Assembly: GCA_964492935.1 (NCBI GenBank)
Contig: CAZBLF010000003.1
Coordinates: 1 to 62,993, forward strand
DNA from: an uncultured Methanosarcinales archaeon
Lineage (GTDB): Archaea > Nanobdellota > Nanobdellia > Woesearchaeales > JACPBV01
DNA: 62,993 bases
Direction: 5' to 3'
The position numbers and the translations under genes are program-made. Of the stretch, positions 978 to 59,976 are shown piece by piece. The notes beneath the pieces were generated by a model, which did not search any database, was not told the origin of the DNA, and saw only the letters and a program-made list of their open reading frames with translations. Every line of letters starts with the position of its first letter. The stretch's first letter is position 1.

Positions 978-3900
978 TCAGAAATCCTTCAGGCTGATCT
1001 GGCCCTTTCTTTTATTTTCTTTTATTTTGAGTTTGTCGAAGTCTTGGCCTACTTGTTTTTTTACGGAAATTGCGGTGGCTTTGCCTAGGATTTGGACGAG
1101 ATTCATGATTTCGATCTTTTTGATGTCTCCTAGGGTGCGGATGCTGTTCTTGTGGAGTTTTCTCCCGCGTGCACGACCTATGCCTTTTAATTTTAGGAGA
1201 GGTATTAGTTCTTCTTTAACGCCATTCGTGATTCTTATTCTCAATTTTTGCATGTGAGAGGATAATTTAGGGAGACTCATGAGCTTGGTTAATTCGATGC
1301 AACAGTAGCAGAGCCAATCGGCGATGTCGATCTTGGTGCGTACTTCACCGGGACGGATGTTGTACTTTTCTAGGAGATTTTCCTCGGTGTTTTCATCTAT
1401 CCAGTCGAGGAAAAAGAGTGCTGTTTTCATCGCATTGAGGAAATCATCATATTCTGCATCATAGAGCGAGGGTTCTTTTTCTAAGAGGGCATGTTCTACT
1501 TTATTGACTGCTTCGTTGACGTCGTCATGATCTTTTGCCGTTACTCTGAGTTGTGGACGAATTTCTAGGGTTGATGAAAGGAGATGGAGGAAGCTGATGG
1601 TGGGGACTTTCATTCTTGTTGCGCGTTGCATGCCGAGAATTAATTGATGTGCGGTGTAGGGATCTAGATAGAGCTCGGCTACACGCTTGCCTACTCGTGT
1701 AGCTTCGTATTTTTCGTCCTTAAGGTTGTCGGCTGATTCGAAGTCGTTGTGGTTAGTGTTGGATTTGAGAAACTCCCACTCTTCTAGAAGTTCAAGCATG
1801 GATTCTATTTTGCCCTGAAGGACATGCATGTCTTCAAATTGGTGGGCCCAGAAGGTTTTTCCAAAGAAATCGAAGATTTGTTGTTTTGTTGAGACGAAAT
1901 CGGCTGCAATGAGGCTGAGTAAGTAGGTTCTTAATACTGGTTCAACGGCTAATTTGCTCTGGATGTCTTCGGGGTCGGCTAGCAAGTACTTTTCTGTTAG
2001 TTTTTCTTTTTCTAGTTCGGATGCTGCTATGACGATGGCTTGGCCTTCTGTATCGTATCCGGGACGTCCTGCTCGACCGGCCATCTGGAGATATTCTAGA
2101 ACTGGAATATAGGTTAATCCACGAAAGCCGAATCTTCTGAGGTCTTTGATGATGGTTCTGAAGGCTGGCAAATCTAGGCCCATTGAATTATGAACAATGA
2201 ACCCCTCGGCAACGAACATATGGTTATTTTTTGGAGTGGAAGGCAGCATAATATCATACACGGTTTCTTTTTTTCTTACTACTTTGATGCTTCTCAACCG
2301 GTCCCAGAAGATATCTCCTTCGAAATCTTGATCTCTCCAACCCTTTTTGATGAACCAATCCAGTTCATTTTCACACAGTGGACAATTTCTCAATCTGAAG
2401 AATTCGACAATACTCTTTTCCCTTTGGAGTATGTTGTTGTAGAAATACGTTCCTATCTTATTGAGACTCCATAACCACTCCGTCTTGCTTCTACTTCCTA
2501 TTCTTCTTTTATCAATCAATTCATAGTGATGATTCAAGCGAGCATCTTTCTTTTTTGGTTCTGTCCCGAATAGTTTCTTGAGCTCTCTTGATCTGAGTTC
2601 ACCTTTTCCCCCAAGAAGCATTAGCACTCTCCTTTTGATCCCGCCCCATTCTTTCATTTCTTTTGTTCTACCATTGAACAGGTCTTTGTAAATCTTGTAC
2701 TGGCATTTTTTACATTCTACAAAGTTAACATTCGCACAGATTTTGCCTACAAGGTCTATGAGCACATCCTGTTTTCTTTTTACTCTGAAACCTATGTGCT
2801 TATAGAAATCAAGAATGCATATCTTTTGGTGTATTTCTAGCTGAAAGCAGGGCAACGTTTTGTACTCTTTGCGATCTATCTTCATTGAACCAGCTTTCTT
2901 TGTACGGATTCTGCTGACGATTCCAAATCTCAGTAGCAGCTTTTGAGTCTGTCGTATCAATTTTTCCGAGGTATTACAGAAGCCAGGCCCCATTCCACGA
3001 TCTACAAAACCGTCTGTGTCAAAAAGACCTTGCAGAAGTCCGATGGTGTTCGCCCTATTTAGATTCAAGAGTTTGTTATTGATGTGTTTCTCTTTACCTT
3101 TTTCAACGCCACATCGCACTAAGAATTCTCTAAACCATTTATTTTTACCCAACACTAGGGAGGGGGTGCCACTCGCCATGATAGTTTCTCTTTTGCTGAT
3201 TCCGAGTATTTCACAAACAACTCTAGCTACCTGAAAGATTTCTATGTCAATTCCGACAAGCGAGGGTGATCCTTTGTAGATTATTTTATTGCCAACTGTT
3301 TCTGCTCCAGAATAACCATCGCCTAGCATTGCCCCTATAAAGTATGAAATCGATGCATCTATAATTATTGGGGAGCTGTCTGTCTGATTATCATTTACAA
3401 AGTCACCCATTTTGAAGCTTTGGCTCTTATTAATCTTCAGCCGACCAATAGTTGCGATTTTGTTCTTCCTTTTGACATGCTTTGCTTGGACTAGTTTTTT
3501 CTGTTGGCCACTTTTAATTAGCATTTCATGTTCGGGAGTTACGAGAATCTTGTATCCAGAAACTGAGGTAATTTCTATAAGTTCTGATACCTCTCCAATT
3601 CTTGCAACTTTTTTTGGTTTCATGGCTATTACATCGCTATTGGAAAGCGCAAAAAGTTTATTGGAAGATCTGAACTCATGTATCTCGGTTTCTTTAGTTC
3701 CGTGCCAGATTTTAGTGTTCTTGGCAAGGCAGAGGGTAGGGGTACAACAAATTATTTTTACGTTTCCTGCCTTGAAATTATCTTCGATGAGGGTGCGTTG
3801 TTTAGTTGTTAACCCCGCATGATGGAAGGCAACTCCTTTTTTGAGACATCTTCCAAGCCGTTTGCATTGTTTGGTCGGCGAGGGTAGCGCCTTAAGGGCT

Positions 3901-4085
3901 GCAGTTTCTAAATCGTCTAAGGGTTGCCGGGTTGTAATCTTTGCTGCGATGTCTTCGGCTGCTTTTTCTGCTGAACGTTTTGTGTTTGCGAAAATGAGTG
4001 CTTGTTTCTTTAATTTGATGGTATCAAGTGCTAGATTGATGTCTGCTCTTTCAGAAATGGTCTCAATTTTCAGTGCCCTACTCAT
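978..4085 (-). CDS. Hel308/Ski2-type helicase, RecA2 + winged-helix + ratchet + HhH part only, interrupted by an intein (no RecA1 domain)
   Basis: 1035-aa ORF. Motif IV-like ALIFANTKRSAEKAA at residues 29-43, then HHAGL and motif V TPTL followed by the intein. The extein resumes at SMGLDLPA, then motif VI QMAGRAGRPGYD and a C-terminal HhH (LKLKGIGRARGRKL). An in-frame TAG (4086-4088) lies directly upstream of the ATG. No Walker A or DExH segment is present. Confidence 0.85.
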   Translation of the reverse strand: MSRALKIETISERADINLALDTIKLKKQALIFANTKRSAEKAAEDIAAKITTRQPLDDLETAALKALPSPTKQCKRLGRCLKKGVAFHHAGLTTKQRTLIEDNFKAGNVKIICCTPTLCLAKNTKIWHGTKETEIHEFRSSNKLFALSNSDVIAMKPKKVARIGEVSELIEITSVSGYKILVTPEHEMLIKSGQQKKLVQAKHVKRKNKIATIGRLKINKSQSFKMGDFVNDNQTDSSPIIIDASISYFIGAMLGDGYSGAETVGNKIIYKGSPSLVGIDIEIFQVARVVCEILGISKRETIMASGTPSLVLGKNKWFREFLVRCGVEKGKEKHINNKLLNLNRANTIGLLQGLFDTDGFVDRGMGPGFCNTSEKLIRQTQKLLLRFGIVSRIRTKKAGSMKIDRKEYKTLPCFQLEIHQKICILDFYKHIGFRVKRKQDVLIDLVGKICANVNFVECKKCQYKIYKDLFNGRTKEMKEWGGIKRRVLMLLGGKGELRSRELKKLFGTEPKKKDARLNHHYELIDKRRIGSRSKTEWLWSLNKIGTYFYNNILQREKSIVEFFRLRNCPLCENELDWFIKKGWRDQDFEGDIFWDRLRSIKVVRKKETVYDIMLPSTPKNNHMFVAEGFIVHNSMGLDLPAFRTIIKDLRRFGFRGLTYIPVLEYLQMAGRAGRPGYDTEGQAIVIAASELEKEKLTEKYLLADPEDIQSKLAVEPVLRTYLLSLIAADFVSTKQQIFDFFGKTFWAHQFEDMHVLQGKIESMLELLEEWEFLKSNTNHNDFESADNLKDEKYEATRVGKRVAELYLDPYTAHQLILGMQRATRMKVPTISFLHLLSSTLEIRPQLRVTAKDHDDVNEAVNKVEHALLEKEPSLYDAEYDDFLNAMKTALFFLDWIDENTEENLLEKYNIRPGEVRTKIDIADWLCYCCIELTKLMSLPKLSSHMQKLRIRITNGVKEELIPLLKLKGIGRARGRKLHKNSIRTLGDIKKIEIMNLVQILGKATAISVKKQVGQDFDKLKIKENKRKGQISLKDF
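2187..3731 (-). mobile_element. Intein (515 aa) with LAGLIDADG homing-endonuclease domain, inserted in helicase motif V
   Basis: Begins with Cys (TPTL|CLAKNTKIW) and ends FIVHN|S. Block B is VTPEHEML. LAGLIDADG motifs are FIGAMLGDGYSG and LLQGLFDTDGFV. There is an extra CKKC...CPLC pair. Codons checked: 3729-3731 gca = Cys, 2187-2189 att = Asn (residues 119-633). Confidence 0.85.
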
Positions 4086-6284: not shown

Positions 6285-8276
6285 CTACCCTGTGACCGCG
6301 TACTGATAGAAGATGTCTGGATCTTGTGTTGATTGAGTGGGTGTTGTTTGTTGTACTGTGGTTGCTGGTTGTTGCTGGACAATTCTGACCATATTGATGT
6401 TCCATTCTTCCTTTACTTTTTCTTTGCCGTCACTTACTGTGACTTTTACTTTTTTCTTTCCTGGAGAGGTGAAAGTGCGGCGCATGGCGGAGGTTCCATT
6501 GTATTTTTCTAATAACCCAAAGTCCCAGGTGTAGGTTAATGTATCTCCATCCGGATCGACTGCATCGATGATGAACGTTACGGGTCGACCGGCAATGCCT
6601 TTGCTCCCTGATTTGGGTTGTGCCGTTTTGATGATCGGTGCTCGATTGACGTGTTCCACAAGAATAGGTATTTCGATATCAGTAGTATCGGCGCCATCGC
6701 TTACGGTGGCTTGAAGAGTGATGTTGTTTACTCCTGAAAGTGATGTGTCGTAATCAGGTGTCCAGGTGATGGTGGTATCTTGAATGTTCATGCCGCGAGG
6801 TGGATCTCTAAGTTGCAGAGTGGTAGGATCCCTGTCTGGATCAGTAATTTCTACATTGAATTCAATCTCTTGATTTTCCTTTACTTCAAGGCTGGCAGGT
6901 ACGGTTGCAGTTGGTGGGCGATTAGTGTTTGTAACCTCAACGATGAGATCTCGTGTTTCTTTGAGGAATCCATCTGAAGCGGTGACTTTTACAATATGCT
7001 TTCCTTCGTCATCGAAGTTTGTGAGGTAGGTATCGGAGGCCATCCATCCTGCGTAGGTGAATTTGATGGCGTCGTTATCTGCATCGAAGGCTTCTGGAGT
7101 TATGGTGATGGATTCTCCTTCGGCTACGGTGATGGTAGATAGTTCAACGAGCTGTGGTGGTCTATTGATGTGCTTGACCCAGATATAGATGGTGTCGGTT
7201 GTGGTGAGATCGTTACTTTCTGCAACGAATTCTAATTTGAAGGGGTAGTAGAGCAGGTGAAATTTGTCTGCAATCTTTTCTATAAGCGTATCTTTGTTTA
7301 CCGTTTCGAAATCCGTTTGCCAGGTGAATGTGTTGCCATCGAATGAGGCGCCATTGGGTAGGTTTGTGAGTGCAATTTGTACTCGATCTCCATCAGGATC
7401 TTCGGAGTTAACGTCGAATGAAACTTCATCATTTTCATTTATGAAAATTGCTCCGATGCGGTCAAAAATAGGATTTCGATCGTTATCGAGTACGGTTACT
7501 ACAATGGTTTTTTCGACTTCAAAGTCTCGATCGGTAAGGGTGATGGTGACGTCATATTCTCCGGCATCATCAAAAGTAGTTTTCCAGGTTCCTGTTTCTA
7601 ATGGCGCGGAAATTTGATATTGCAGATTGAGTGCCGCGAAGTCTGGCAGTGTAAGGGAGACGGTTTCGGTTTCGGTAACGGTGATGTCCTCAAAGGCATC
7701 TAGGAGTGCTTCACGATCGACTTCTTGTACTTCTATTTCCCAGGTGAATGAGGCTTCCTTATCGCCATCTCCGATATTGACGGAAAGTTCGAGATTGCCG
7801 GCATCACCGTAATCTGCAAGAAATTCGAGGGTGTTGGTTGTTGTTTCAAGTTCTCTTTCATTGAGCACCCAGTTATACTCTAGGTTATCGCCATTGATGT
7901 CGGAGGCGTCGATAGAAAAGGTAGCAACTTGGCCTTCTTTCATGACTACTTGCTGTGGAGGGCTCGTTGTGAGTATTTCTGGAGCTTCGTTTTTCTTCTC
8001 AACGACAAGAAGTACCTCTTTAGCTGTTGTTAACTCCCCGTCAGAAACTCGGATGCTAATGTTGTAGGTGCCGGCATCGCCATACGTGGTTTGCCACTGT
8101 CCTTCCTCATTAAGAGGAGGGGTATAGTAGATATTGAGTTGGTCGTTGTCTGGATCGTTAACGGTTACTTTGAGATTGACGAAATCGGTTTCTTGGACTT
8201 CAACGGTTTCAATGGCAAAAGCTAGGGTTAGTGAACTTATTAAAATAATCACGAATACTGCTAGCTTTGCCTTCAT
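6285..8276 (-). CDS. Secreted protein with about 7 tandem PKD/cadherin-like Ig repeats
   Basis: 663 aa. Signal-like N-terminus MKAKLAVFVIILISSLTLAFA. Repeated units of about 90 aa each carry a DPDxD/DxNGD motif (DPDNDQL, DINGDNL, DPDGDRV, DADNDAI, DPDRDPT, DPDGDTL). Confidence 0.7.
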   Translation of the reverse strand: MKAKLAVFVIILISSLTLAFAIETVEVQETDFVNLKVTVNDPDNDQLNIYYTPPLNEEGQWQTTYGDAGTYNISIRVSDGELTTAKEVLLVVEKKNEAPEILTTSPPQQVVMKEGQVATFSIDASDINGDNLEYNWVLNERELETTTNTLEFLADYGDAGNLELSVNIGDGDKEASFTWEIEVQEVDREALLDAFEDITVTETETVSLTLPDFAALNLQYQISAPLETGTWKTTFDDAGEYDVTITLTDRDFEVEKTIVVTVLDNDRNPIFDRIGAIFINENDEVSFDVNSEDPDGDRVQIALTNLPNGASFDGNTFTWQTDFETVNKDTLIEKIADKFHLLYYPFKLEFVAESNDLTTTDTIYIWVKHINRPPQLVELSTITVAEGESITITPEAFDADNDAIKFTYAGWMASDTYLTNFDDEGKHIVKVTASDGFLKETRDLIVEVTNTNRPPTATVPASLEVKENQEIEFNVEITDPDRDPTTLQLRDPPRGMNIQDTTITWTPDYDTSLSGVNNITLQATVSDGADTTDIEIPILVEHVNRAPIIKTAQPKSGSKGIAGRPVTFIIDAVDPDGDTLTYTWDFGLLEKYNGTSAMRRTFTSPGKKKVKVTVSDGKEKVKEEWNINMVRIVQQQPATTVQQTTPTQSTQDPDIFYQYAVTG

Positions 8277-8293
8277 TGATACCCCCTACAGGC

Positions 8294-9400
8294 TTACCCA
8301 AGGGTAATGTCTTCGATGACTGGAGGTCTGTTGACGTTTCCTACAACAATACTCACTTCCTGACTTACTTCATCTGTTCCATCAGATGCAGTTATGGTCA
8401 CGGAGTACGACCCTGAGTCATCGTGGTTTGTTTCCCACACAAAATTCTCTCCGTCCTGGCTGAATCTCTCATCATCGATTGTAAATTGAATTTCATCTCC
8501 ATCGGGATCTGAAGCTACCGGCGTGAGTGTAACTAGTTCAGTCTCTGATAGTGCAATGTCTTGAATGGTTTCAAGTGTTGGTTCTCGGTTGAGATTTGCT
8601 ACCGTTATTTCCCAGCTGTGTCTAACTTCAGAGACGCTGTCTGAGATAATAACCTCTAGTGAGTGTTCGCCTGCCGAACTAAAGTCTAATGGTAGGGAGA
8701 AGCTTTCTGCATCGGTAGAAAGTTCTTCACCGTTGAGGCGCCAGCTGTATGCTAATGCATCGTTGTTCAGATCATTGGCTTCGGCTGTGAATTCTATTGA
8801 TGAATCCTCGACTGCGGTAACTGCTGATTGTGTTGGGATGGTGCTTCCAATGACTGGAGACTCTTCTTTCTTGTTCACAATAACTAGTACATCTTTTGCT
8901 GCGGTTAACTCTCCGTCAGATGCGGTGATGGTGATGGTATATTCGCCTTCGTCGCCATACGTGGTTTGCCAGACGCCGCCCTGATTGATAGGGGAGGTGT
9001 AGCTTAATGAGATGCTATCCTGGTCGGGGTCGTCTACCTGCGGTTTAAGCGATACGAGATCGGTTTCTTGTACGATAAGGATTTTAGCGTTGGAGGGAGG
9101 TGTTGCTTCAACAGGTTCTGGGATGACTTCTTCTACTGTTTCTTCAACAGGCTCTTCAGTGGGTGTTTCTTCTACTGTTTCTTCTGGAAGTGCTGGAGGC
9201 TGTTCGATGATGTCTTCTTCGCCTGCGTCAACGGGTAGCGGAGGAGGTAGGTCATCTGATTCTTCTACTTTGATATCTTCTAGCGAAATAAATTCTGTAT
9301 CTGAAGCTGGCTCTAGGCCATAGAGTTGATTAATGGTTTCGCAACCTGTTGCTAAGAATAGTGTAAGGATGATGCTTATTATCAGTACTTTTTTTATCAT
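8294..9400 (-). CDS. Putative lipoprotein with acidic linker and the same Ig-like repeats
   Basis: 368 aa. Lipobox-like LFLATGC follows a hydrophobic N-terminus. An E/P/V-rich linker is followed by three repeats with DPDQD/DLNND/DPDGD motifs, homologous to the downstream gene. Confidence 0.7.
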   Translation of the reverse strand: MIKKVLIISIILTLFLATGCETINQLYGLEPASDTEFISLEDIKVEESDDLPPPLPVDAGEEDIIEQPPALPEETVEETPTEEPVEETVEEVIPEPVEATPPSNAKILIVQETDLVSLKPQVDDPDQDSISLSYTSPINQGGVWQTTYGDEGEYTITITASDGELTAAKDVLVIVNKKEESPVIGSTIPTQSAVTAVEDSSIEFTAEANDLNNDALAYSWRLNGEELSTDAESFSLPLDFSSAGEHSLEVIISDSVSEVRHSWEITVANLNREPTLETIQDIALSETELVTLTPVASDPDGDEIQFTIDDERFSQDGENFVWETNHDDSGSYSVTITASDGTDEVSQEVSIVVGNVNRPPVIEDITLG

Positions 9401-9561: not shown

Positions 9562-9727
9562 TGGGCCCGCGGAGATTTGAACTCCGGACCATAACCGGGA
9601 TGTTTCCATCCTCTCGATGTCTGCCAGCTGGTTTGCGGAAATTTACATTTCCGGATTCCCATTGGGATATCAGTGTTGCTTTCCTTTTTGGGGAATCGAG
9701 CACTCCACCAGACTAAGCTACGGGCCC
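9562..9727 (-). tRNA. tRNA gene with two insertions (about 71 nt at the anticodon loop, about 21 nt in the variable region); isotype unresolved
   Basis: Minus strand: acceptor GGGCCCG/CGGGCCC with A73, D-arm GCTT-AGTCTGGTG-GAGT, anticodon stem CTCGA...TCGAG, T-arm CGGAG-TTCAAAT-CTCCG. 166 - 71 - 21 = 74 nt. The loop 5' side reads TTCCCC. A TTTTTAAA box lies 26-33 nt upstream (9753-9760). Confidence 0.8.
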
Positions 9728-10054: not shown

Positions 10055-11137
10055 GTGATGTTGATGAGAAAATTTAGTAAGTCTTGGCGGAAGTCGAATC
10101 TTGAGAAGAAGACAAAGATTCTACAAGAAAGTTATGATCTTGATATTTTTGAGATAGAACGAATTAGAAAAATCACTGATCCAAAGAAGAAATTAGTTCA
10201 AGCTGCGACACTCCAATTTGAGTCTTTTGGTAATATTCACTCAGATATTACTTCCTGGATTGCAGGGTATCGGAGTGATAGTGTTGTAAGAGATTACTTT
10301 ACATCAACCTTGGCTTTGCGCAAATTAGTGATGCCTCCTCAAGAGAATTTTTCCGATATTGGCGTTAGTTGGAGAGATATTAGAAACAGGTTTAAGGTTC
10401 CCCGAAATATCAATGAAGATCTATCGGAAGAAATTGGGATCCATATCGGCGATGGAAATTTATCGGTGACTACTCATCGAGGATGGGATAGTTATGTTTA
10501 TCGGGTTGATGGTTGCCTTAGGGATGAATTCATTTACCACGACGATTTCATAAGAAAACTCATGAAAAGATTGTATAATTGTTCACCTTATTTGAGGCAG
10601 GTTGCTTATAGGAACTCTATCCAATCTTGTTACAGTTCCAAACTTATTGTTAAGTATAAGCATCAGGTACTTGGGCTCCCTTTTGGTTGTAAAAAGAAAA
10701 TTGAAATTCCGAAAGTAGTTTTCGATGACGATTCCTTTGCAATACGATGCCTCGTTGGGATTATGGACACTGATTTTACTTATTCTTCAAATCAATCCAT
10801 ACAAGGTGCATTAACTAGTTTAAGGGTAATCAAGCAAATGGGAAGCATTCTTGAAAGATTGAATGTGAGTTTCTCATCAAGAATATCTGATACTGTTGGT
10901 ACTATTAATATACATAAAAAAGATTCACTTGAAATTATTGAGGACTGGGATTTTCACAACCAGAAGCATGTTTCTAAACATTTTCTCTACATGGAAACGG
11001 GTAAGTCCTTTCCTTATACTTACACTGAAGAAAGAGTATGTGTTCTTGGGGGTACTATTGCAGTTGACGCATTGGAAAAAGTTAGTAATTATAGGAAGAA
11101 AGTGGCGTTGGAAAAAAGGAGCCAAGCCGTTACTTGA
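10055..11137 (+). CDS. Free-standing LAGLIDADG-type homing endonuclease-like protein
   Basis: 360 aa. Two LAGLIDADG-like motifs (EEIGIHIGDGNLS and RCLVGIMDTDFTY) are spaced about 100 aa apart. The gene lies between two intron-bearing tRNA genes on the opposite strand. Confidence 0.6.
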   Translation: MMLMRKFSKSWRKSNLEKKTKILQESYDLDIFEIERIRKITDPKKKLVQAATLQFESFGNIHSDITSWIAGYRSDSVVRDYFTSTLALRKLVMPPQENFSDIGVSWRDIRNRFKVPRNINEDLSEEIGIHIGDGNLSVTTHRGWDSYVYRVDGCLRDEFIYHDDFIRKLMKRLYNCSPYLRQVAYRNSIQSCYSSKLIVKYKHQVLGLPFGCKKKIEIPKVVFDDDSFAIRCLVGIMDTDFTYSSNQSIQGALTSLRVIKQMGSILERLNVSFSSRISDTVGTINIHKKDSLEIIEDWDFHNQKHVSKHFLYMETGKSFPYTYTEERVCVLGGTIAVDALEKVSNYRKKVALEKRSQAVT

Positions 11138-11150
11138 CTACCTGGCAAAA

Positions 11151-17968: not shown

Positions 17969-18757
17969 ATGAATAAAAAGATTATACAAGAAACATTAGC
18001 AAAACTCAAGAAGGAGTCTTCTAAGCGTAAATTTTCTCAGACTGTTGAATTAGTTGTAAATCTAAAAGGTCTTGATCTTAAGAAACCTGAGCATCAGGTG
18101 CATGCGTATGTGCAGTTGCATCACTCACGGGGTAAACCGGTTAAAGTGTGTGCGTTAGTGGGTCCTGAGTTGTTAGAACAGGCAAAAACTGATGTTGATG
18201 GGTATGTTGGCGTAGATGACTTTGGAAAGCACCAGGACAAGATGCTTGCAAAGAAACTTGCAAACAGCTATGATTATTTTGTTGCGCAGGCAACGATCAT
18301 GCCGAAGCTTGCTACTGCTTTTGGTAGAGTTTTCGGTCCTAAGGGAAAGATGCCTAATCCTAAGGCTGGCTGTGTAGTGCCGCCTAATGCTAATTTGAAG
18401 CAATTACATGAGAAATTACAGAAGACAGTGAAATTGCTTGCACTTACTGATCCTATCATCCACGTTGCTATTGGAACTGAGGAAATGGCGGATGACGCGG
18501 TTGTAGATAACATTCAGGTTGTTTATGATTGGTTGGTTCATCACCTGCCGCAGGGTAAAGATAACATTCGAAATGCTTTCATTAAGATGTCCATGACTAA
18601 GTCGTATTCCTTGGGTGGAAAGGATGAAGAGACATCTAAAAAAGATAAGAAATCTAAGAAGGTTGAAGTTAAAGAGGAAGCTCCTGAAGAGTCTGCTCCT
18701 GAAGAATCAAAGGAATCTACTGATGTTGTAGATGAAGTCGCGGAGGAAGAGGCTTAG
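17969..18757 (+). CDS. rpl1: Ribosomal protein uL1 with acidic/Lys-rich C-terminal extension
   Basis: 262 aa. The L1 core is followed by a 45-aa K/E/S-rich tail. First gene of an L1-P0-P1 cluster. Confidence 0.9.
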   Translation: MNKKIIQETLAKLKKESSKRKFSQTVELVVNLKGLDLKKPEHQVHAYVQLHHSRGKPVKVCALVGPELLEQAKTDVDGYVGVDDFGKHQDKMLAKKLANSYDYFVAQATIMPKLATAFGRVFGPKGKMPNPKAGCVVPPNANLKQLHEKLQKTVKLLALTDPIIHVAIGTEEMADDAVVDNIQVVYDWLVHHLPQGKDNIRNAFIKMSMTKSYSLGGKDEETSKKDKKSKKVEVKEEAPEESAPEESKESTDVVDEVAEEEA

Positions 18758-18761
18758 TACA

Positions 18762-20501
18762 ATGGGAGAAAAAACTCAGCACGTTGCCGATTATAAGAAG
18801 AAAGAGGTAGCTGAGCTTGTAAAGTTAATGGTTGAATCTCCGGTAATCGCAGCTGTTAACATGGATGGTTTGCCGGCTCCACCGTTACAGAAGATGCGAA
18901 GTCAGCTTCGTGATAAGATGACGCTTATTATGAACAAGCGTAGAATTTTTAATATTGCTATTGGTCAGGCAAAAGATAAAAGAAAGGGCATTGAGGAATT
19001 GAGTGCGTACCTCAAAGGAATGCCTGCTTTGATTTTCACTCAGGATAATCCATTTTCATTGTTTAAGGTCTTAAAGAAAAGTAAGAGTCCTGCTCCTGCA
19101 AAAGCTGGACAGGAGGCTCCCTTCGATATTGTTGTTCCGAAAGGACCTACTCCGTTTGCTCCTGGACCGGTTATCGGCGAATTAGGAGCTGCTGGTATCT
19201 CGGCAACGGTTGAGGACGGTAAGGTTGTTATTAAGGAAGATTCGGTTGCAGTTAAAGAAGGTGAAACTGTTGATCAGGCTACTGCTGAAATTCTTTCTCG
19301 TCTATCGGTTCATCCGATGGAGGTTGGGTTGAATATTACTGCTGTCTTAGAGGATGGACAGATTTTCACTCCTAAAGTTCTTGATATTGATGAGGATAAG
19401 TTCCTTGCCGATCTTAGCGGTGCAGCTGCAATGGCTTTCAATCTTGCTTGCGAGGCTGCGTACCCGGTTAAGGAAAACATTGAGCTGCTTATTGGAAAAG
19501 CATTCAAGGGTGCTAAGGCTGTTGCGATTGAGGGCGATATTTTGAGTCCTGATGTAATGGATGAACTGCTTGGCAAGGCTGAACGTGGCGCTCAGGGTGT
19601 AAAATCTGCTGGTAAGATTGAAGTTGGTGCAAAGGTTGCTGAAGAAAAGAAAGAAGAAGCTTCTGAAGAGCCTAAGGAAGAACCTAAGGAAGAGGAAAAG
19701 AAAGAAGATGCTTCTGAAGAGAAAAAGGAAGAGCCTAAGGTAGAAGAAAAGAAAGAAGAGCCTAAGGAAGAACCTGCTCCTGCTGAAGAAAAGAAAGAAG
19801 AAGCTCCTGCTGAAGAAAAGAAAGAGGAACCAAAGGTAGAAGAAGCAAAAGAGGAACCTGCTCCTGAACCGGAAGAACCCAACGAAGAGGAGAAGAAAGA
19901 GGAACCTGCTCCTGAACCTGAAGCTCCTAAAGAAGAAGAAAAGGTAGAAGAAGCAAAAGAAGAACCAACTCCTGAACCTGAAGCTCCTGCTGAACCCGAG
20001 GAACCTAAAGAGGAACCTAAGGTAGAAGAGAAAGTTGAAGAAGAAGTAAAAGAAGAACCTGAAGCTCCTAAAGAAGAGAAACCTGCCGCACAGAAAATCG
20101 AAGATTTTCCTACTTCAGAATCCAAAGATTCAGAAGCAACTGAAGATAAGGTTGCTGACATGGTGGAAAAGACTCAGAATTTTAACAAAGGTGACCGTCC
20201 TAGTGCCGACGATTTGCTCGGTGATGTTGATTCGGCTGAACCGGAAGAACCCAAAGAACCTGAAGCTCCTAAAGAAGAAGAAAAGGTAGAAGAACCTGCT
20301 CCTGCTGAACCTACAGAACCTGAAGCTCCTAAAGAGGAACCGGTAGAGGAAGTAAAAGAAGCAAGCGAACCTTCACCTACTGAGGAATTGGAAGCGAAGA
20401 AGGCTGAAAAGGAAAAGGAACTTGCAAAGGAAAAGGAAAAACATGATGAGGCTGAGCGATTGGCGGCTGATCTTGTTAAGAAGGGGACCTTACGAAAATG
20501 A
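18762..20501 (+). CDS. rplP0: Ribosomal stalk protein uL10 (P0) with a large E/K/P-rich C-terminal expansion
   Basis: N-terminal 300 aa are P0-like (MGEKTQHVADYKKKEVAEL..., PALIFT, GPVIGELGAAGI). About 280 aa of KEEP-type low complexity follow. Start is taken at ATG 18762, just after the L1 stop; the track ORF begins at 18732. Confidence 0.85.
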   Translation: MGEKTQHVADYKKKEVAELVKLMVESPVIAAVNMDGLPAPPLQKMRSQLRDKMTLIMNKRRIFNIAIGQAKDKRKGIEELSAYLKGMPALIFTQDNPFSLFKVLKKSKSPAPAKAGQEAPFDIVVPKGPTPFAPGPVIGELGAAGISATVEDGKVVIKEDSVAVKEGETVDQATAEILSRLSVHPMEVGLNITAVLEDGQIFTPKVLDIDEDKFLADLSGAAAMAFNLACEAAYPVKENIELLIGKAFKGAKAVAIEGDILSPDVMDELLGKAERGAQGVKSAGKIEVGAKVAEEKKEEASEEPKEEPKEEEKKEDASEEKKEEPKVEEKKEEPKEEPAPAEEKKEEAPAEEKKEEPKVEEAKEEPAPEPEEPNEEEKKEEPAPEPEAPKEEEKVEEAKEEPTPEPEAPAEPEEPKEEPKVEEKVEEEVKEEPEAPKEEKPAAQKIEDFPTSESKDSEATEDKVADMVEKTQNFNKGDRPSADDLLGDVDSAEPEEPKEPEAPKEEEKVEEPAPAEPTEPEAPKEEPVEEVKEASEPSPTEELEAKKAEKEKELAKEKEKHDEAERLAADLVKKGTLRK

Positions 20502-23550: not shown

Positions 23551-23594
23551 GTCTTTTTTTTGATGGGTGAGTATTTAAATGTTTGGATGAGATG

Positions 23595-23727
23595 TATGTG
23601 CATAGCATCACCAGGTCGAAATTCATTGATACCTCAGAATTAAGTGCGTTGCGCGGGGTTGCCCCATCCGGGGACGCAGCACCTTCAGAAGTCAAGAGCA
23701 AGAATTTCGAAGGTGCTATGCACATAC
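23595..23727. mobile_element. Family-A element A2: MITE-like 133-nt palindromic insert with terminal inverted repeats and target-site duplication
   Basis: 14-bp perfect terminal inverted repeat GTATGTGCATAGCA (23594-23607 versus reverse complement of 23714-23727). It is flanked by the direct repeat GATGAGATG (23586-23594 and 23728-23736). The interior is homologous to A1, A3 and A4. Confidence 0.8.
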
Positions 23728-23782
23728 GATGAGATGGAAGGGGCTGAGAAACTATATAAAGGAGGAACTCTCCGTAGGTGAT

Positions 23783-36826: not shown

Positions 36827-36961
36827 GGTATGTGGATAGCGTCTTCGAAATTCTTGCTTCTGACCTTGAAGGTGCTGCGTCCCCGTAGGGGGCAACCCCC
36901 CACGACGCACTTGCTTCTGCGGTATCAAGGAATTTCGACTTTAGGACGCTACGCACATACC
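36827..36961. repeat. Family-A structured repeat (A4)
   Basis: 135 nt. Terminal inverted repeat GGTATGTGGATAGCGTC / GACGCTACGCACATACC. Interior pairs TTCGAAATT...AATTTCGA and GAAGGTGCTGCG...CGACGCACTT. Centre CCCCGTAGGGGGCAACCCCCC. It is about 80% alignable with the reverse complement of A2. No target duplication was seen. Confidence 0.8.
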
Positions 36962-39741: not shown

Positions 39742-39760
39742 GTTAGTGCAAAAAAAGAGG

Positions 39761-39854
39761 CAGCGGAAATCAGAGAGCTTCGAAATTTGTTTCGAACCCC
39801 TCAAACAGAGTTTGAGATTTCCTGGTCTCCTTGTTGCATATCAATAGGAAAAAA
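39761..39854. repeat. Family-B element (B1) flanked by a 19-bp direct duplication
   Basis: CAGCGGAAATCAGAGAGCTTCGAAATTTGTTTCGAACCCCTCAAACAGAGTTTGAGATTTCCTGG... is about 90% identical over 66 nt to B2 and B3. Flanks: GTTAGTGCAAAAAAAGAGG (39742-60) and GTTTAGTGCAAAAAAGAGG (39855-73). Confidence 0.8.
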
Positions 39855-39879
39855 GTTTAGTGCAAAAAAGAGGTGAATC

Positions 39880-47973: not shown

Positions 47974-48048
47974 AGTGTAGAAGAAGCAATCTTTTTTTAT
48001 AAAGGTGAGTTATTTTTGAGAAAGAAAAAACGCCACCGCCCGGATTTG

Positions 48049-48136
48049 CAGCGGGAATTAAGAGCTTCGAAACAAGTTTCGAACCCCTCAAACAAAGTTT
48101 GAGATTTCCTGGCCATACAAACCTGCGGTTTGTAGG
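48049..48136. repeat. Family-B element (B2) inside tRNA-Ser fragment copy 1
   Basis: CAGCGGGAATTAAGAGCTTCGAAACAAGTTTCGAACCCCTCAAACAAAGTTTGAGATTTCCTGGCCATACAAACCTGCGGTTTGTAGG. Three internal hairpins: TTCGAAAC/GTTTCGAA, CTCAAAC/GTTTGAG and TACAAACC/GGTTTGTA. Confidence 0.85.
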
Positions 48137-48189
48137 AACCAGGATATCCTTGCGGAAAGTAAAAGAAAAAACGCCACCGCCCGGATTTG

Positions 48190-48277
48190 CAGCGGGAATT
48201 AAGAGCTTCGAAACAAGTTTCGAACCCCTCAAACAAAGTTTGAGATTTCCTGGCCATACAAACCTGCGGTTTGTAGG
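48190..48277. repeat. Family-B element (B3) inside tRNA-Ser fragment copy 2
   Basis: Identical to B2, offset by 141 nt. Confidence 0.85.
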
Positions 48278-48312
48278 AACCAGGATATCCTTGCGGAAAG
48301 TAAAAGAAAAAA

Positions 48313-48432
48313 CGCCACCGCCCGGATTTGAACCAGGATATCCTTGCGGAAAGTGGCTGCCTAGATGCCATACATTTCATTAGAAATTTGGCAATTCAAG
48401 GCCACCGCAATACCGGATTATGCGACAGTGGC
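48313..48432 (-). tRNA. tRNA-Ser(UGA) with 36-nt canonical intron
   Basis: Minus strand: GCCACTG..GTGGC-CT TGA A-[36 nt]-A-GCCAC, long variable arm TTTCCGCAAGGATAT, T-arm CCTGG-TTCAAAT-CCGGG, CGGTGGC, G73. A TTTAAATAA box lies 26-34 nt upstream. Confidence 0.9.
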
Positions 48433-48514
48433 AATAATAGTTTTGGAAAGAGAATGCTTATTTAAAGGTAACTAGTGTTGACACTAGGACCGAGAGTATT
48501 AGTCTGGTATTCTC

Positions 48515-52315: not shown

Positions 52316-52323
52316 TTTAGTAT

Positions 52324-52396
52324 GGGCCTGTGGTCTAGCGGCTATGACGCCACCTCGACATGGTGGATATCATGGGTTCAATTCCCTTCAGGCCCA
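52324..52396 (+). tRNA. tRNA-Val(GAC), intronless, with C33 and a U50:U64 mismatch
   Basis: 73 nt in canonical register: GGGCCTG/CAGGCCC, A73, anticodon arm CCACC-TC GAC AT-GGTGG, T-arm ATGGG-TTCAATT-CCCTT. Confidence 0.8.
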
Positions 52397-52399
52397 TTT

Positions 52400-52435
52400 C
52401 AGGACTGAAGGCCAGGAGGAGTTTCTTCTCCGCGT
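52400..52435 (-). repeat. Family-D repeat, copy D2, bracketed by a 14-bp duplication of the tRNA-Val 3' end
   Basis: CTTCAGGCCCATTT occurs at 52386-52399 (tRNA 3' end plus trailer) and again at 52436-52449. The 36 nt between them are the inverted copy of D1. Confidence 0.8.
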
Positions 52436-52447
52436 CTTCAGGCCCAT

Positions 52448-52957
52448 TTATTCTTCTTGAAGTTTGTAGGTACGGAAGAAGTCTTTTAGGAGTGCATAGA
52501 GTTCGTTTACGCGATGTTCTACTAAATCATCATCTCTCCGATCATAGTGTTTTAAGAGGAAATAATCGATGAAGGTTCTCATTGCGTAATACCAGGGGTT
52601 GTTTTCCCAGGAGGTGTGGTGTTCGGATTCTAGGAAGCCGTCAAAGATAACTAACAAATTTCCGAAGTCTACCGTTCTGCTGGTTTTTCCTTTTTTTACT
52701 TTCGCTTTCTTTAAGTCTTGGATGAGGATTCTGATTTTGACGATTGCTTTTGATTTATCGTGGAGGTTGTCATAGATTTCTAAGGCATATTCGATATCTT
52801 TGCCATGTTCGTGGACATGTTCGCGCTTCATTTTGATTTCGCGATACTTTCCTGTTTTTACTATCCAGCTTTCGATGATTTCATAGAGTTCTTTAAGATT
52901 GAATGGACCGTTATAGGAGAGTTTCTTTCCCGATACGATCATCTTTTTTTCGGTCAT
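52448..52957 (-). CDS. Unknown-function protein, paralog 1 of a tandem triplet
   Basis: 169 aa. IVSGKKLSYNGPFNLKELYEIIESW aligns with IVDHLKIDYDGIVDLKGLFRVLSQW of paralog 2. They share G-x-[LI]-x-[IV]-F-[LD]-G...W and a C-terminal helix. Confidence 0.6.
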   Translation of the reverse strand: MTEKKMIVSGKKLSYNGPFNLKELYEIIESWIVKTGKYREIKMKREHVHEHGKDIEYALEIYDNLHDKSKAIVKIRILIQDLKKAKVKKGKTSRTVDFGNLLVIFDGFLESEHHTSWENNPWYYAMRTFIDYFLLKHYDRRDDDLVEHRVNELYALLKDFFRTYKLQEE

Positions 52958-58918: not shown

Positions 58919-59033
58919 GCGCTGAGGCACGGCCGTATCATGAGCAAGCTCAATTTGAAGCGAGCGAGAGTAGCTGTGAGACTTCGTCAAATCGCCGCTT
59001 CTCGCAACAGCGGCCTCAATGGGCGTCAGCGCT
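58919..59033 (+). repeat. Family-C structured repeat, long form (C1)
   Basis: Closed by GCGCTGA/TCAGCGC. The core GAGGCACGGC..ATGAGC..TTGAAGCGAGCGAGAG.AGCTG.GAGACTTCGTCAA.TCGCCGCTTCTCGCAACAGC.GCCTCA..GGGCGT is about 85-90% identical to C2. Confidence 0.85.
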
Positions 59034-59035
59034 GC

Positions 59036-59803
59036 TTAGGATTCTATAGCGGTTAGCCAGAGGACTTTGGTATATGCTGTGATGGCTAGGGTTGTGAAGA
59101 TTGCTATTAGAGGAATTGCGAGATAGCCGTCGATGGTGGTCATGAAGAGGTACATTGGCAGGGCTACTAAGAGGATGTTGATGAGGAAGAAGAGTAGGAG
59201 AAGGTGGCCTTTGTTGATGATTAGGGAAAGGATTTTCTTAGGTATTTGTTTTATGGGATGATGTGTTGTTGCGAATGCTGTATAGCTGAGGAAGGAGATG
59301 ACTGCGATTACGGTTAATGCTACTCCCGTGGGTAAATACTGTTGTTCATTGATGCCGGTTAGGGCTGTTTTTAGGTAGCTTGTGATAAGTTGTTGTATTG
59401 CTATTGAGGTTATTAGACCGATGATTACTATGTTGACATAGGTTTTGGTGTTTATCTTTCTGATCATGGATTGCGCTAATAACCATGCTACTCCGTTGAT
59501 GAGGATGAAGGCTATTGCTATTGCTATTCCTCCTCGCTCGAAATAGGTGAGCATGTTTTGGAAGCTTCTGTAGATTTTGGCTGCGTCTTGTTGTTGGAGT
59601 TGCGGTTGTTCTTGGTTTTGTATTGCTAATTGGTCATAGATTTCCATTCCTTGCTTGCCTTCCTCTATTGCTGGGATGATGGTGAAGAATGCTGCTATGG
59701 AGATGGTGAAAAGGAAGAGTAGTTGTACCACTACGATGGTTGCGAATCTTGATTTGTTGTTCTTTATTTTTTGGAAGCTGTTTTTGAAGGGTTCTTTGAT
59801 CAT
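59036..59803 (-). CDS. Polytopic membrane protein, unknown function
   Basis: 255 aa with about 6 TM. A Q-rich loop (NQEQPQLQQQD). Flanked by direct copies C1 and C2. Confidence 0.5.
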   Translation of the reverse strand: MIKEPFKNSFQKIKNNKSRFATIVVVQLLFLFTISIAAFFTIIPAIEEGKQGMEIYDQLAIQNQEQPQLQQQDAAKIYRSFQNMLTYFERGGIAIAIAFILINGVAWLLAQSMIRKINTKTYVNIVIIGLITSIAIQQLITSYLKTALTGINEQQYLPTGVALTVIAVISFLSYTAFATTHHPIKQIPKKILSLIINKGHLLLLFFLINILLVALPMYLFMTTIDGYLAIPLIAIFTTLAITAYTKVLWLTAIES

Positions 59804-59853: not shown

Positions 59854-59976
59854 ATGCCAAGACACGGCGCACTTATGAGCTTTCTTCGAAATCTCACTTT
59901 GAAGCGAGCGAGAGGAGCTGCGAGACTTCGTCAATTCGCCGCTTCTCGCAACAGCAGCCTCATCGGGCGTTGGCAT
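59854..59976 (+). repeat. Family-C structured repeat, long form (C2)
   Basis: Closed by ATGCCAA/TTGGCAT. Same core as C1 plus an extra CTTCGAAATCTCAC segment. Confidence 0.85.

Follow-up and report, generated by a model that had tools for sequence, protein, structure and literature searches.

Two interrupted copies of a tRNA-Ser 3' end and a small hairpin element family in an archaeal contig

Background

How does a tRNA gene come to be followed by two identical copies of its own 3' end, both interrupted at the same point of the T-loop by the same 88-nt element? The question is raised by a tRNA-Ser(UGA) gene in a stretch of 62,993 nucleotides (NCBI GenBank assembly GCA_964492935.1, contig CAZBLF010000003.1, positions 1 to 62,993), here called the window, from an uncultured archaeon deposited as Methanosarcinales and placed by GTDB in the Woesearchaeales. 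The gene content of the window is archaeal, including an encoded TFB, and the nearest named relatives of its AMP phosphorylase are 'Nanoarchaeota/Woesearchaeota' metagenome-assembled genomes (MAGs), with 86% amino acid identity to a Nanoarchaeota MAG. The answer that we favour, with about even confidence, is that the array behind the tRNA gene is a non-functional insertion and duplication of DNA at the tRNA 3' end, later expanded by unequal recombination.

Independent contigs were fetched, by way of the flanking proteins, from ENA, JGI and Logan assemblies. Two sister lineages were compared with the window: the L008 lineage (marine contigs L008-L010 and L031, 86-91% nucleotide identity to the window) and the L025 lineage (GCA_027623355.1, 75-84% nucleotide identity).

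Organisation of the tRNA-Ser locus

The locus consists of an intact tRNA-Ser gene and, on its 3' side, two units of 141 nt, each holding one copy of the 88-nt element, which we call E:

48459-48466, minus strand: TATA-box-like TTTAAATA, read from the sequence about 27 nt upstream of the tRNA-Ser 5' end
48313-48432, minus strand: intact tRNA-Ser(UGA) gene (Rfam RF00005, 38.2 bits)
48395-48432, minus strand: exon 1 of tRNA-Ser
48359-48394, minus strand: canonical 36-nt intron of tRNA-Ser, at 37/38
48313-48358, minus strand: exon 2 of tRNA-Ser
48172-48312, minus strand: unit 1, 141 nt (trailer 48302-48312, X 48278-48301, E 48190-48277, Y 48172-48189)
48031-48171, minus strand: unit 2, 141 nt, identical to unit 1 (trailer 48161-48171, X 48137-48160, E 48049-48136, Y 48031-48048)
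48021-48030: original trailer, after unit 2
48254-48277 and, second copy, 48113-48136, minus strand: hairpin H3 of E, CCTACAAACC gca GGTTTGTATGG (RNA fold)
48190-48253 and, second copy, 48049-48112, minus strand: hairpin H4 module of E, CCAGGAAATC (48244-48253) ... AATTCCCGCTG (48190-48200), around a nested insert (RNA fold)
48203-48243, with copies at 48062-48102 and, in the second locus E2, at 39775-39815, minus strand: nested 41-nt double hairpin in the H4 loop, TCAAAC..GTTTGA GGGG TTCGAAAC..GTTTCGAA GCTC

The tRNA gene is complete, with a TATA box of its own and a T-tract at its end, and TTTAAATA is the sole promoter-like element of the locus, conserved in both the L008 and L025 lineages. 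A sequence-only reading of the window had placed an intron-containing tRNA-Ser(UGA) here, and Rfam and ARAGORN agree with it, the latter giving, with introns allowed and on the identical sequence of contig L015, a tRNA-Ser(tga) with a 36-nt intron. This intron at 37/38 differs among close relatives, being 36 nt long in the window lineage, absent from the ~90% identical L008 lineage (L008, 10265-10350) and replaced by an unrelated 34-nt sequence in L025 (550-669), a sign of fast intron turnover.

On the tRNA strand the locus runs tRNA 5' part, X, Y, trailer / X, E, Y, trailer / X, E, Y, trailer, so that each unit is made up, in this order, of an 11-nt T-rich trailer (TTTTTTCTTT(T)), X (24 nt), E (88 nt) and Y (18 nt). 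X (ACTTTCCGCAAGGATATCCTGGTT) covers tRNA positions ~42-55, its last nucleotide being the T-loop U55, and Y (CAAATCCGGGCGGTGGCG) extends from C56 to the discriminator (tRNA positions 56-73). The identity of the two units, already seen in the first reading, is recovered by Tandem Repeats Finder as a period of 141 with 2.2 copies and 100% matches over 48021-48330. E has exactly two exact occurrences, at 48049-48136 and 48190-48277 on the minus strand (0 expected in shuffles), and its proposed insertion point between T-loop nucleotides 55 and 56 holds, with the single qualifier that a 1-nt 'C' ambiguity also permits 56/57. In the window X and Y together are identical, over 24 and 18 nt, to the GGTT|CAAATCC region of the real gene, and removal of E restores the canonical tRNA sequence; in the L008 and L025 lineages one arm mismatch is left when E is removed from the unit.

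Read by eye, and in line with what had been stated before, the units contain neither tRNA positions 1-41 (the 5' half) nor a TATA box, and they lie behind the T-tract of the gene. The near-complementarity of the element to the tRNA amounts to 9/10 positions (GATTTCCTGG vs CCAGGATATC). Each unit ends in a 7-bp GC-rich stem, CCGCUGC/GCGGUGG, in acceptor-stem register and followed by a T-run, and folding of the whole region gives z=-8.1. The direct repeats at tRNA-Ser are separated by only 66-113 nt of gene-free sequence, and inspection of the unit ends (..CTCTTTTGATAT / ..TTTCCGCTG) finds no terminal inverted repeats (TIRs).

Copy number among independent contigs

The number of units at this locus varies. 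One unit is present in seven contigs (L001, L015, L019-L023) and two units in L016 (a TARA scaffold), L018 and the window, giving one versus two units across 11 contigs, a copy-number polymorphism of the kind expected among near-identical genomes for a tandem repeat expanded by unequal recombination or slippage. The two units of L016 differ by one C/T single-nucleotide polymorphism (SNP), and a two-unit haplotype must therefore exist. The two E alleles end in ..AATTCCCGCTG (C) and ..AATTTCCGCTG (T); one-unit contigs hold either allele, and the combinations seen are C, T, CC (window, L018) and CT (L016: C then T).

An assembly artefact, in which the tandem copy number or even the entire repeat would be a mis-assembly, had been named in the first reading as a thing to check, and two identical 141-nt copies are indeed hard to count from short reads; contigs L002-L005, L017 and L024 break inside or next to the repeat, as expected of short-read assemblies. 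We nevertheless find this explanation hardly credible, as the unit occurs in at least 11 independent assemblies, the two copies in L016 are told apart by a SNP and the sister lineages have orthologous units. Copy number varies between haplotypes, or at least is no artefact of a single assembly.

E is not a spliceable intron

Bulge-helix-bulge (BHB) geometry was scored at defined splice sites for the central helix (of 4), the exon-side helix and the intron-side helix, with five introns as controls. One of these controls comes from L012, a groundwater relative (63% amino acid identity on the neighbour gene) in which the syntenic tRNA-Ser(UGA) (7508-7615, minus strand) is split in the T-loop, at 59/60, by a genuine 19-nt intron whose hBHBh' structure is perfect (T-stem, UUCA:UGAA, UGGU:ACCA).

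Five control introns (among them window tRNA-Ser 37/38, L025 tRNA-Ser 37/38, tRNA-Asn and L012 T-loop 59/60): central 3-4, exon-side 5-6, intron-side 3-5
Window tRNA-Ser intron at 37/38: relaxed BHB, central 3/4, outer helices 6 and 5
E of the window, L008 and L025, in either register (55/56, 56/57): central 1-3 of 4, exon-side 0, intron-side 0

With outer helices of 0/0 in three lineages and in both registers, E is rejected as a BHB-dependent T-loop intron, and the earlier view that this was no T-loop intron now has scores behind it. The whole Y-trailer-X-E block, taken as a 141-nt intron, is rejected in the same way (no BHB: 3 of 4, 0 and 2). E in the tRNA-Ser units is not an intron. We also discarded the idea that the units are the 3' half of a split or permuted tRNA, as they lack a TATA box, directly follow an intact gene with that very 3' half and have no partner in the 63-kb window.

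The unit in two sister lineages

The comparison of related tRNA-Ser loci, which the sequence-only reading had proposed, yields two sister lineages with a single unit, a 47-nt E and a 12-nt left arm. Synteny is kept in the L008 lineage (AMP phosphorylase, a 49-amino-acid gene, tRNA-Ser, a 121-amino-acid gene, TFB), where an intronless tRNA-Ser is followed by trailer, CTCTTTTG, GATATCCAGGTT, a 47-nt E', Y and trailer; among more distant homologues of the 121-amino-acid gene, synteny with tRNA-Ser is lost. The left arm X' of both lineages is the 12-nt GATATCCAGGTT, which matches the tRNA at 11/12 positions. E' of L008 is made of CCTTGCAACC aac GGTTGTAAGG (H3) and CCA GGAAAG ctctg CTTTCC GCTG (H4). 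The unit of L025 is of the same type, its H3 being identical to that of the window at 22/24 positions and its H4 reading GGAAAT ttta ATTTCC. In its minimal form without the nested insert, H4 is thus a GGAAAG/CTTTCC stem in L008 and a GGAAAT/ATTTCC stem in L025, and three adjacent base pairs are changed in the H3 of L008 with the pairing kept. The nested 41-nt double hairpin is found in neither of the two E loci of the L008 lineage nor in the tRNA-Ser copy of L025, only in the window lineage. The copies of Y plus trailer (25-30 nt) are identical within each lineage, and the trailers differ between lineages.

As the unit is common to three lineages, it predates their split. Judged by these alignments, the 88-nt E is a composite, with an apparently older 47-nt two-hairpin core and a later 41-nt double hairpin nested in the loop of H4; by the same comparison only the window lineage has the 24-nt perfect X and the second unit, and the double hairpin and the second unit are recent additions. 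E of the window is 93% identical to that of L025 and only 79% to that of the closer L008, and an excess of conservation is therefore not clear.

The region behind tRNA-Ser in L025 has further features of its own. At 651-912 a hairpin element of ~45 nt, T1, stands behind each of the two Y copies, so that a perfect repeat of 70 nt results, and a longer, hairpin-rich insert containing T1 is bracketed by an 18-nt repeat of the tRNA-Ser end. A 127-nt element, 96% identical between L025 (256-381) and L006 (4150-4275), lies beside tRNA-Ser and tRNA-Leu.

A second firm member at a site away from tRNA genes

A second locus of the window, E2, carries the same family between protein-coding genes:

39742-39873, plus strand, with the E core on the minus strand: E2, a 94-nt insert (39761-39854) in the spacer between two co-oriented genes, with a 19-nt direct repeat GTT(T)AGTGCAAAAAA(A)GAGG at 39742-39760 and 39855-39873

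The initial E-family match spans 39761-39825. In the L025 lineage (L046-L048) the site is empty (..GTTAGTGCAAAAAAGAGGtggatt..ATG), in the L008 lineage (L042/L043) it holds a 53-nt version of E2 between the two copies of a perfect 19-nt duplication, and E2 of the window lineage corresponds to the L008-type insert with the 41-nt double hairpin in the loop of H4; among the matches listed for the window lineage, in which 22 contigs were read, E2 is carried at 10/10 places. This comparison of occupied and empty alleles proves E2 to be a true insertion, the site being empty in one sister lineage. The window lineage has the double hairpin at both E loci and the L008 lineage at neither, which requires either that the copies underwent gene conversion or that the nested insertion was site-specific.

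To the left of its hairpins E2 reads TTTTC-CTATTGATATGCA, a T-rich stretch plus GATATNCA, which aligns with the trailer and GATATCCA of the L008 and L025 tRNA-Ser units (p ~0.001-0.002 against shuffles). Because the trailer-like sequence and the GATAT arm are thus also found in E2, the copied unit is T-rich sequence, GATAT arm and hairpins, ending in ..TTTCCGCTG and bracketed by the duplicated target, which at tRNA-Ser is Y plus trailer. The family core consists of GATAT, a hairpin A and CC(A)GGAAAT-loop-ATTTCCGC(TG), and is non-coding and palindromic. The 88-nt 'family-B element' of the sequence-only reading therefore belongs to a real family, as the E2 insertion attests, but it is a composite of 47 and 41 nt, and what is copied includes arm and trailer and is not a free 88-mer that inserts into T-loops. 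Target-primed reverse transcription was considered for E2, which ends in an A-run, and rejected on inspection, as the start of the downstream duplication is not A-rich and a related copy in a tRNA-Gly gene is tailless.

Probable relatives at tRNA-Gly and tRNA-Val

Two more sites of the window resemble E:

9562-9727, minus strand: tRNA-Gly(CCC), 166 nt (Rfam 39.3 bits, permissive filters), with a 71-nt intron (9619-9689) at 37/38
9635-9672, minus strand: E-like segment TGATATCC caatgggaat CCGGAAATgtaaATTTCCGC within the tRNA-Gly intron, a probable E relative
52323-52397, plus strand: tRNA-Val(GAC)
52386-52399, plus strand: tRNA-Val 3' end plus TTT, followed by a 36-nt insert (52400-52435, ..GGCCAGGAGGAGtttcttCTCCGCGt) and a 14-nt direct repeat (52436-52449), a possible E relative

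The intron of tRNA-Gly, which has a relaxed BHB (scores 3/5/1), holds TGATATCC..CCGGAAAT gtaa ATTTCCGC, and the motif GGAAAT N3-5 ATTTCCGC has its one window occurrence there, with 0.02 expected. The insert behind tRNA-Val reads ..GGCCAGGAGGAG tttctt CTCCGCGt, and the 14-nt repeat equals the last 11 nt of the tRNA plus TTT; this site is empty in the L008 lineage (near 9052, minus strand), and L006 (near 3212, minus strand), a MAG of the L025 lineage, has another insert there, a palindrome of 41 nt with a GGAAAT/ATTTCC stem. Pairwise comparison gives p<=0.001 for the tRNA-Gly segment against members of E and p=0.002 for the tRNA-Val insert against the E of L008, in tests designed after the matches had been seen. 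In a leave-one-out profile hidden Markov model (HMM) search neither copy was recovered (tRNA-Val E=6.7), so that both memberships stand on the pairwise and motif statistics; from these the tRNA-Gly segment is probably, and the tRNA-Val insert possibly, a relative of E. Family profile HMMs run over ~350 kb of fetched loci gave no further members, and the extra 10 kb past the window start in L088 contain no tRNA and no E copy.

The tRNA-Gly(CCC) gene is the fifth tRNA of the window and was missed by default ARAGORN and by the Rfam run at gathering thresholds; it has a further insertion of ~22 nt in the variable region, and its position 37 would be C, which is unusual. In its default mode ARAGORN missed 3/5 window tRNAs. 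On the 3' side of tRNA-Asn (11100-11150, minus strand) a GCCAGG..CTTGGC stem with a 14-nt loop and a T-run begins with 'CCAGG' as the E hairpins do; a duplication of the tRNA end was not found there.

A proposed history of insertion and duplication

The array is most likely neutral debris that varies on two known themes, tRNA-fragment footprints and palindromic mini-elements. In the history that we favour, a unit of ~60 nt (left arm and two hairpins) would have become fixed just behind the tRNA trailer before three Woesearchaeota-like lineages split, bracketed by a direct duplication of 25-30 nt running from a point in the T-loop through the trailer. The resulting order, tRNA body, duplication, insert, duplication, would be the product of a staggered-cut integration, and the same order of duplication, insert and duplication is seen at E2. 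In the window lineage the 41-nt double hairpin would then have been nested in the loop of hairpin B at both E copies, and the left arm made identical to the tRNA over 24 nt, probably via gene conversion. The second unit would have been added last, by unequal recombination or replication slippage between the Y repeats, and its presence is still polymorphic. Since E cannot be spliced and the units stand behind an oligo-T terminator, they are most likely of no need or use to the cell; it is the intact tRNA-Ser copy next to the promoter that keeps the locus viable. Among the options listed in the sequence-only reading, the one closest to the comparative data is its small element at the T-arm, caught in duplicated 3' fragments with an intact gene preserved, although nothing supports the 'decoy' role that it attached to these fragments.

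Several observations weigh against this history. No transposase, integrase, Cas1 or PolB was found in a Pfam scan of 30 window open reading frames (ORFs), about half of the larger ones and including all immediate neighbours. The unit has no TIRs, and the duplications vary in length (14 nt at tRNA-Val, 18 nt for the L025 insert, 19 nt at E2, which is not at a tRNA, and 25-30 nt at tRNA-Ser) in a way that fits no known single enzyme. A simple model of insert plus target duplication does not explain X', which matches the tRNA at 11/12 positions and lets X'-E-Y mimic an interrupted T-arm; the tRNA locus is accounted for just as well if a tandem duplication of 53 nt came first and the spare T-loop then received the insertion, and it is E2 that tips the balance towards a unit plus duplication. 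The pairing of the hairpins is kept across lineages despite sequence change, which could reflect selection for structure, and the 7-bp stem and T-run closing each unit may have a role in termination or RNA processing. The family, moreover, counts only two firm and two probable loci, the latter being those missed by the leave-one-out HMM.

Wider searches added little to the family. Rfam at permissive thresholds gave only noise-level matches on E (E-values >=2.5), and a box C/D or H/ACA small RNA was rejected on inspection for want of conserved boxes (CUGA in E2 only, and UGAUAU in place of a C box). Exact-pattern scans of the GTDB genome set and of JGI metagenome contigs did not find the double-hairpin core, a second metagenome scan with the minimal H4-Y junction re-found the L008 lineage alone, and in IMG/VR neither Y nor the double hairpin nor the H4 motif had more than chance or irrelevant matches, for example a phage tRNA.

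Alternative explanations

The array might instead be a set of integration scars, in which the Y repeats are attL/attR-like or target-duplication remnants of a tRNA-targeting element (of tyrosine-recombinase or Cas1/casposase type) whose body has been lost, E is the rest of its ends and re-integration or accretion gave rise to unit 2. Integration into tRNA genes classically leaves behind an intact tRNA with a partial 3' copy after it (PMC9897764; PMC3293823). Direct repeats of the tRNA 3' end (Y plus trailer) are present, one of them within the intact gene, the duplicated segment starts in the T-loop and covers the 3' end, and the order seen at tRNA-Ser, with a body ahead of duplication, insert and duplication, is accompanied by duplication-bracketed inserts behind tRNA-Val, where the duplication is 14 nt, and at E2. 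T-loop-type integrases, as distinguished by Williams in 2002, reportedly use the tRNA region from the T-loop to the 3' end. The casposase of A. boonei makes a 15-bp duplication overlapping the 3' end of tRNA-Pro and requires the T-arm region (PMC5137440). We still hold such scars to be unlikely: the repeats enclose a mere 66-113 nt without inverted termini, the ORFs scanned include no integrase, Cas1 or PolB, an att site of a recombinase would join X' directly to Y, yet E intervenes, E2 is not at a tRNA and has no sequence in common with Y, duplications of 14-30 nt misfit an enzyme with fixed cut spacing, and the IMG/VR scan gave no viral or plasmid contig with Y in an attP-like context. Repeated site-specific integration, the second option of the sequence-only reading, suffers from the same lack of an integrase among the scanned ORFs and of an element body at the locus. 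A related and bolder proposal is that the family is a tiny non-autonomous hairpin element of DPANN archaea, which would be inserted at or in tRNA genes by an enzyme using the T-arm as 'leader' (Cas1/casposase-like or other) with long target duplication, and which in the anticodon-loop intron of tRNA-Gly(CCC) would merely be carried and spliced out; we consider it distinctly doubtful.

Two further explanations turn on the tRNA gene itself. E may have been a T-loop intron of an ancestral tRNA-Ser, whose 3' segment was displaced by an intronless one so that X'-E-Y was left behind to decay: excision of E would restore a perfect T-loop, the syntenic locus of L012 has its genuine T-loop intron, the canonical intron of tRNA-Ser turns over quickly (36 nt, none, unrelated 34 nt) and an E-like sequence stands within the real intron of tRNA-Gly(CCC). 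But E has no BHB in three lineages and, its junction sequences being conserved between them, the copy of their common ancestor was already without one; the T-stem cannot act as outer BHB helix at 55/56 (geometry worked out by hand and checked by the BHB scores), and E2 shows the family spreading as DNA outside tRNA genes, all of which makes a relic intron improbable. We judge in much the same way a local origin by fold-back template switching, in which E and the duplications are direct, inverted and direct copies of the tRNA T-arm and the 'compensatory' changes are single templated events. Replication template switching can create and maintain hairpins, with multi-base 'compensatory' changes in one step (PMC8794818), as would suit the three adjacent base pairs changed in the H3 of L008; CCAGGAAATC is a 9/10 inverted copy of X, and the tRNA-Val insert has a 9/10 inverted copy of the tRNA-Val 3' strand. 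Local alignment of E with the tRNA 3' region, direct or inverted, is however not significant (p 0.03-0.3), and the core CCAGGAAAT..ATTTCCGCTG occurs at E2 with unrelated flanks, which needs copying between loci. Finally, the unit might be a conserved structured element with a function as RNA or DNA, for example as a reserve terminator of the tRNA or a signal for its processing, as antisense to the tRNA-Ser 3' end or a decoy of it, or, in the manner of a decoy attachment site, in shielding the tRNA gene. Such a function would explain why the unit persists in three lineages with its pairing kept, why the Y copies match the tRNA's own Y down to lineage-specific trailers, and why each unit has a 7-bp GC-rich stem and T-run in a region of such low folding energy (z=-8.1). 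It strikes us as very improbable for units that are promoterless and behind an oligo-T terminator, whose copy number varies from 1 to 2 and whose left arm is decayed in two lineages, with conservation of E (93% to L025, 79% to the closer L008) not clearly above background, no Rfam match and, on inspection, no conserved C/D boxes. The promoter, terminator and Rfam results likewise tell against the functional tRNA-fragment RNA put forward as the third option of the first reading.

Comparison with known systems

The statement in the first reading that no equivalent had been described was too strong, as partial tRNA 3' copies (PMC9897764) and casposon duplications at tRNA 3' ends (PMC5137440) are known. 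In attR-type tRNA fragments an intact tRNA gene is likewise followed by a direct repeat of its part from T-loop to 3' end (PMC9897764; in an archaeal population, PMC3293823), but the known cases bracket elements of 9-23 kb or larger (~1.8 kb in Caldiarchaeum) with a gene for an integrase or recombinase, whereas here 66-113 nt without genes are bracketed, and the fragment is interrupted in the T-loop and tandemly amplified. Casposons and Cas1 share with our locus the tRNA T-arm as 'leader', the order duplication, insert, duplication and a duplication overlapping the tRNA 3' end; casposon duplications, which are long for a transposon, measure 15 bp, and 16 and 22 bp at off-target sites (PMC5137440, PMC6614799). 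Our locus differs from them in having no TIRs, no Cas1 or PolB among the scanned ORFs, duplications of 14-30 nt, an insert of tens of nt rather than kb, and a member, E2, off any tRNA.

Miniature inverted-repeat transposable elements (MITEs) and repetitive extragenic palindromic (REP)-like sequences resemble E in being short intergenic sequences that encode nothing, form hairpins and occur in several copies, and in leaving relatives with an empty site, as at E2, although E lacks TIRs and has long variable duplications, a tRNA-like arm and only two firm and two probable loci in 73 kb. A MITE of the window itself, which we call family A, differs from E in having TIRs and an 8-bp duplication. For the Thermoproteales, transposition of tRNA introns, with similar short sequences in different tRNA genes of one genome, was described by Fujishima et al. 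(2010), as summarised in PMC4033280; according to that summary the transposed introns have a BHB at each new site and are spliced, whereas E lies in a dead fragment without BHB and also outside tRNA genes. Long and variable direct repeats (8-514 bp) with no mechanistic model are known for IS1634 and IS1549 (PMC2266710), but these measure 1.5-2 kb and encode a DDE transposase, and neither such a gene, among the scanned ORFs, nor a TIR is seen here.

A review asks explicitly for 'snapshots' of the acquisition of introns, fragments and splits by archaeal tRNA genes (PMC4033280), and an element family that seeds tRNA genes would, if real, provide a live snapshot of archaeal tRNA introns growing or being seeded at the DNA level. 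The locus and its sister lineages would form a dated series, from a tRNA 3' duplication with a two-hairpin insert to the nested hairpin and on to a polymorphic tandem amplification, with family copies also in a real tRNA intron (probable) and at a site whose empty allele survives in a sister lineage. Insertions driven by an enzyme would reveal an unrecognised integration activity in DPANN archaea with long target duplications; if the insertions are mere replication errors, the lesson would be one of caution, as dead tRNA 3' fragments and 'compensatory' hairpin changes could then arise without function. In either case the locus illustrates how small elements and duplications accumulate at tRNA gene ends, and tRNA finders miss or mis-call such loci. 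The value for follow-up lies in the family's link to a tRNA intron and in the long target duplications.

Other features of the window

According to the Pfam scan, the neighbours of the tRNA-Ser locus are housekeeping genes (TFB, AMP phosphorylase, AI-2E transporter and others). The genes around 52-63 kb have almost no Pfam matches, and in this part an intergenic direct repeat of 81 nt (58946-59026 and 59890-59970, 90% identical) flanks an ORF without assigned function (59036-59803, minus strand). A helicase-like ORF of 1035 amino acids lies at 978-4085 (minus strand), and the identical gene in L088 has precomputed Pfam matches that include an intein with a LAGLIDADG domain. The ORF at 18732-20501 (plus strand) is rich in degenerate E/K/P tandem repeats with periods of 12-60 nt and is the source of most tandem-repeat calls in the window.

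The family-A MITE (~135-170 nt, TIR GTATGTGCATAGCAT) is found at 23594-23728 (plus strand) and ~36832-36960 (minus strand), and also in L046 (1290-1457), at the ends of L006 and at the start of L025; one copy shows an 8-bp target duplication (GATGAGAT). Since copies stand at contig ends in GCA_027623355.1, this MITE probably breaks assemblies.

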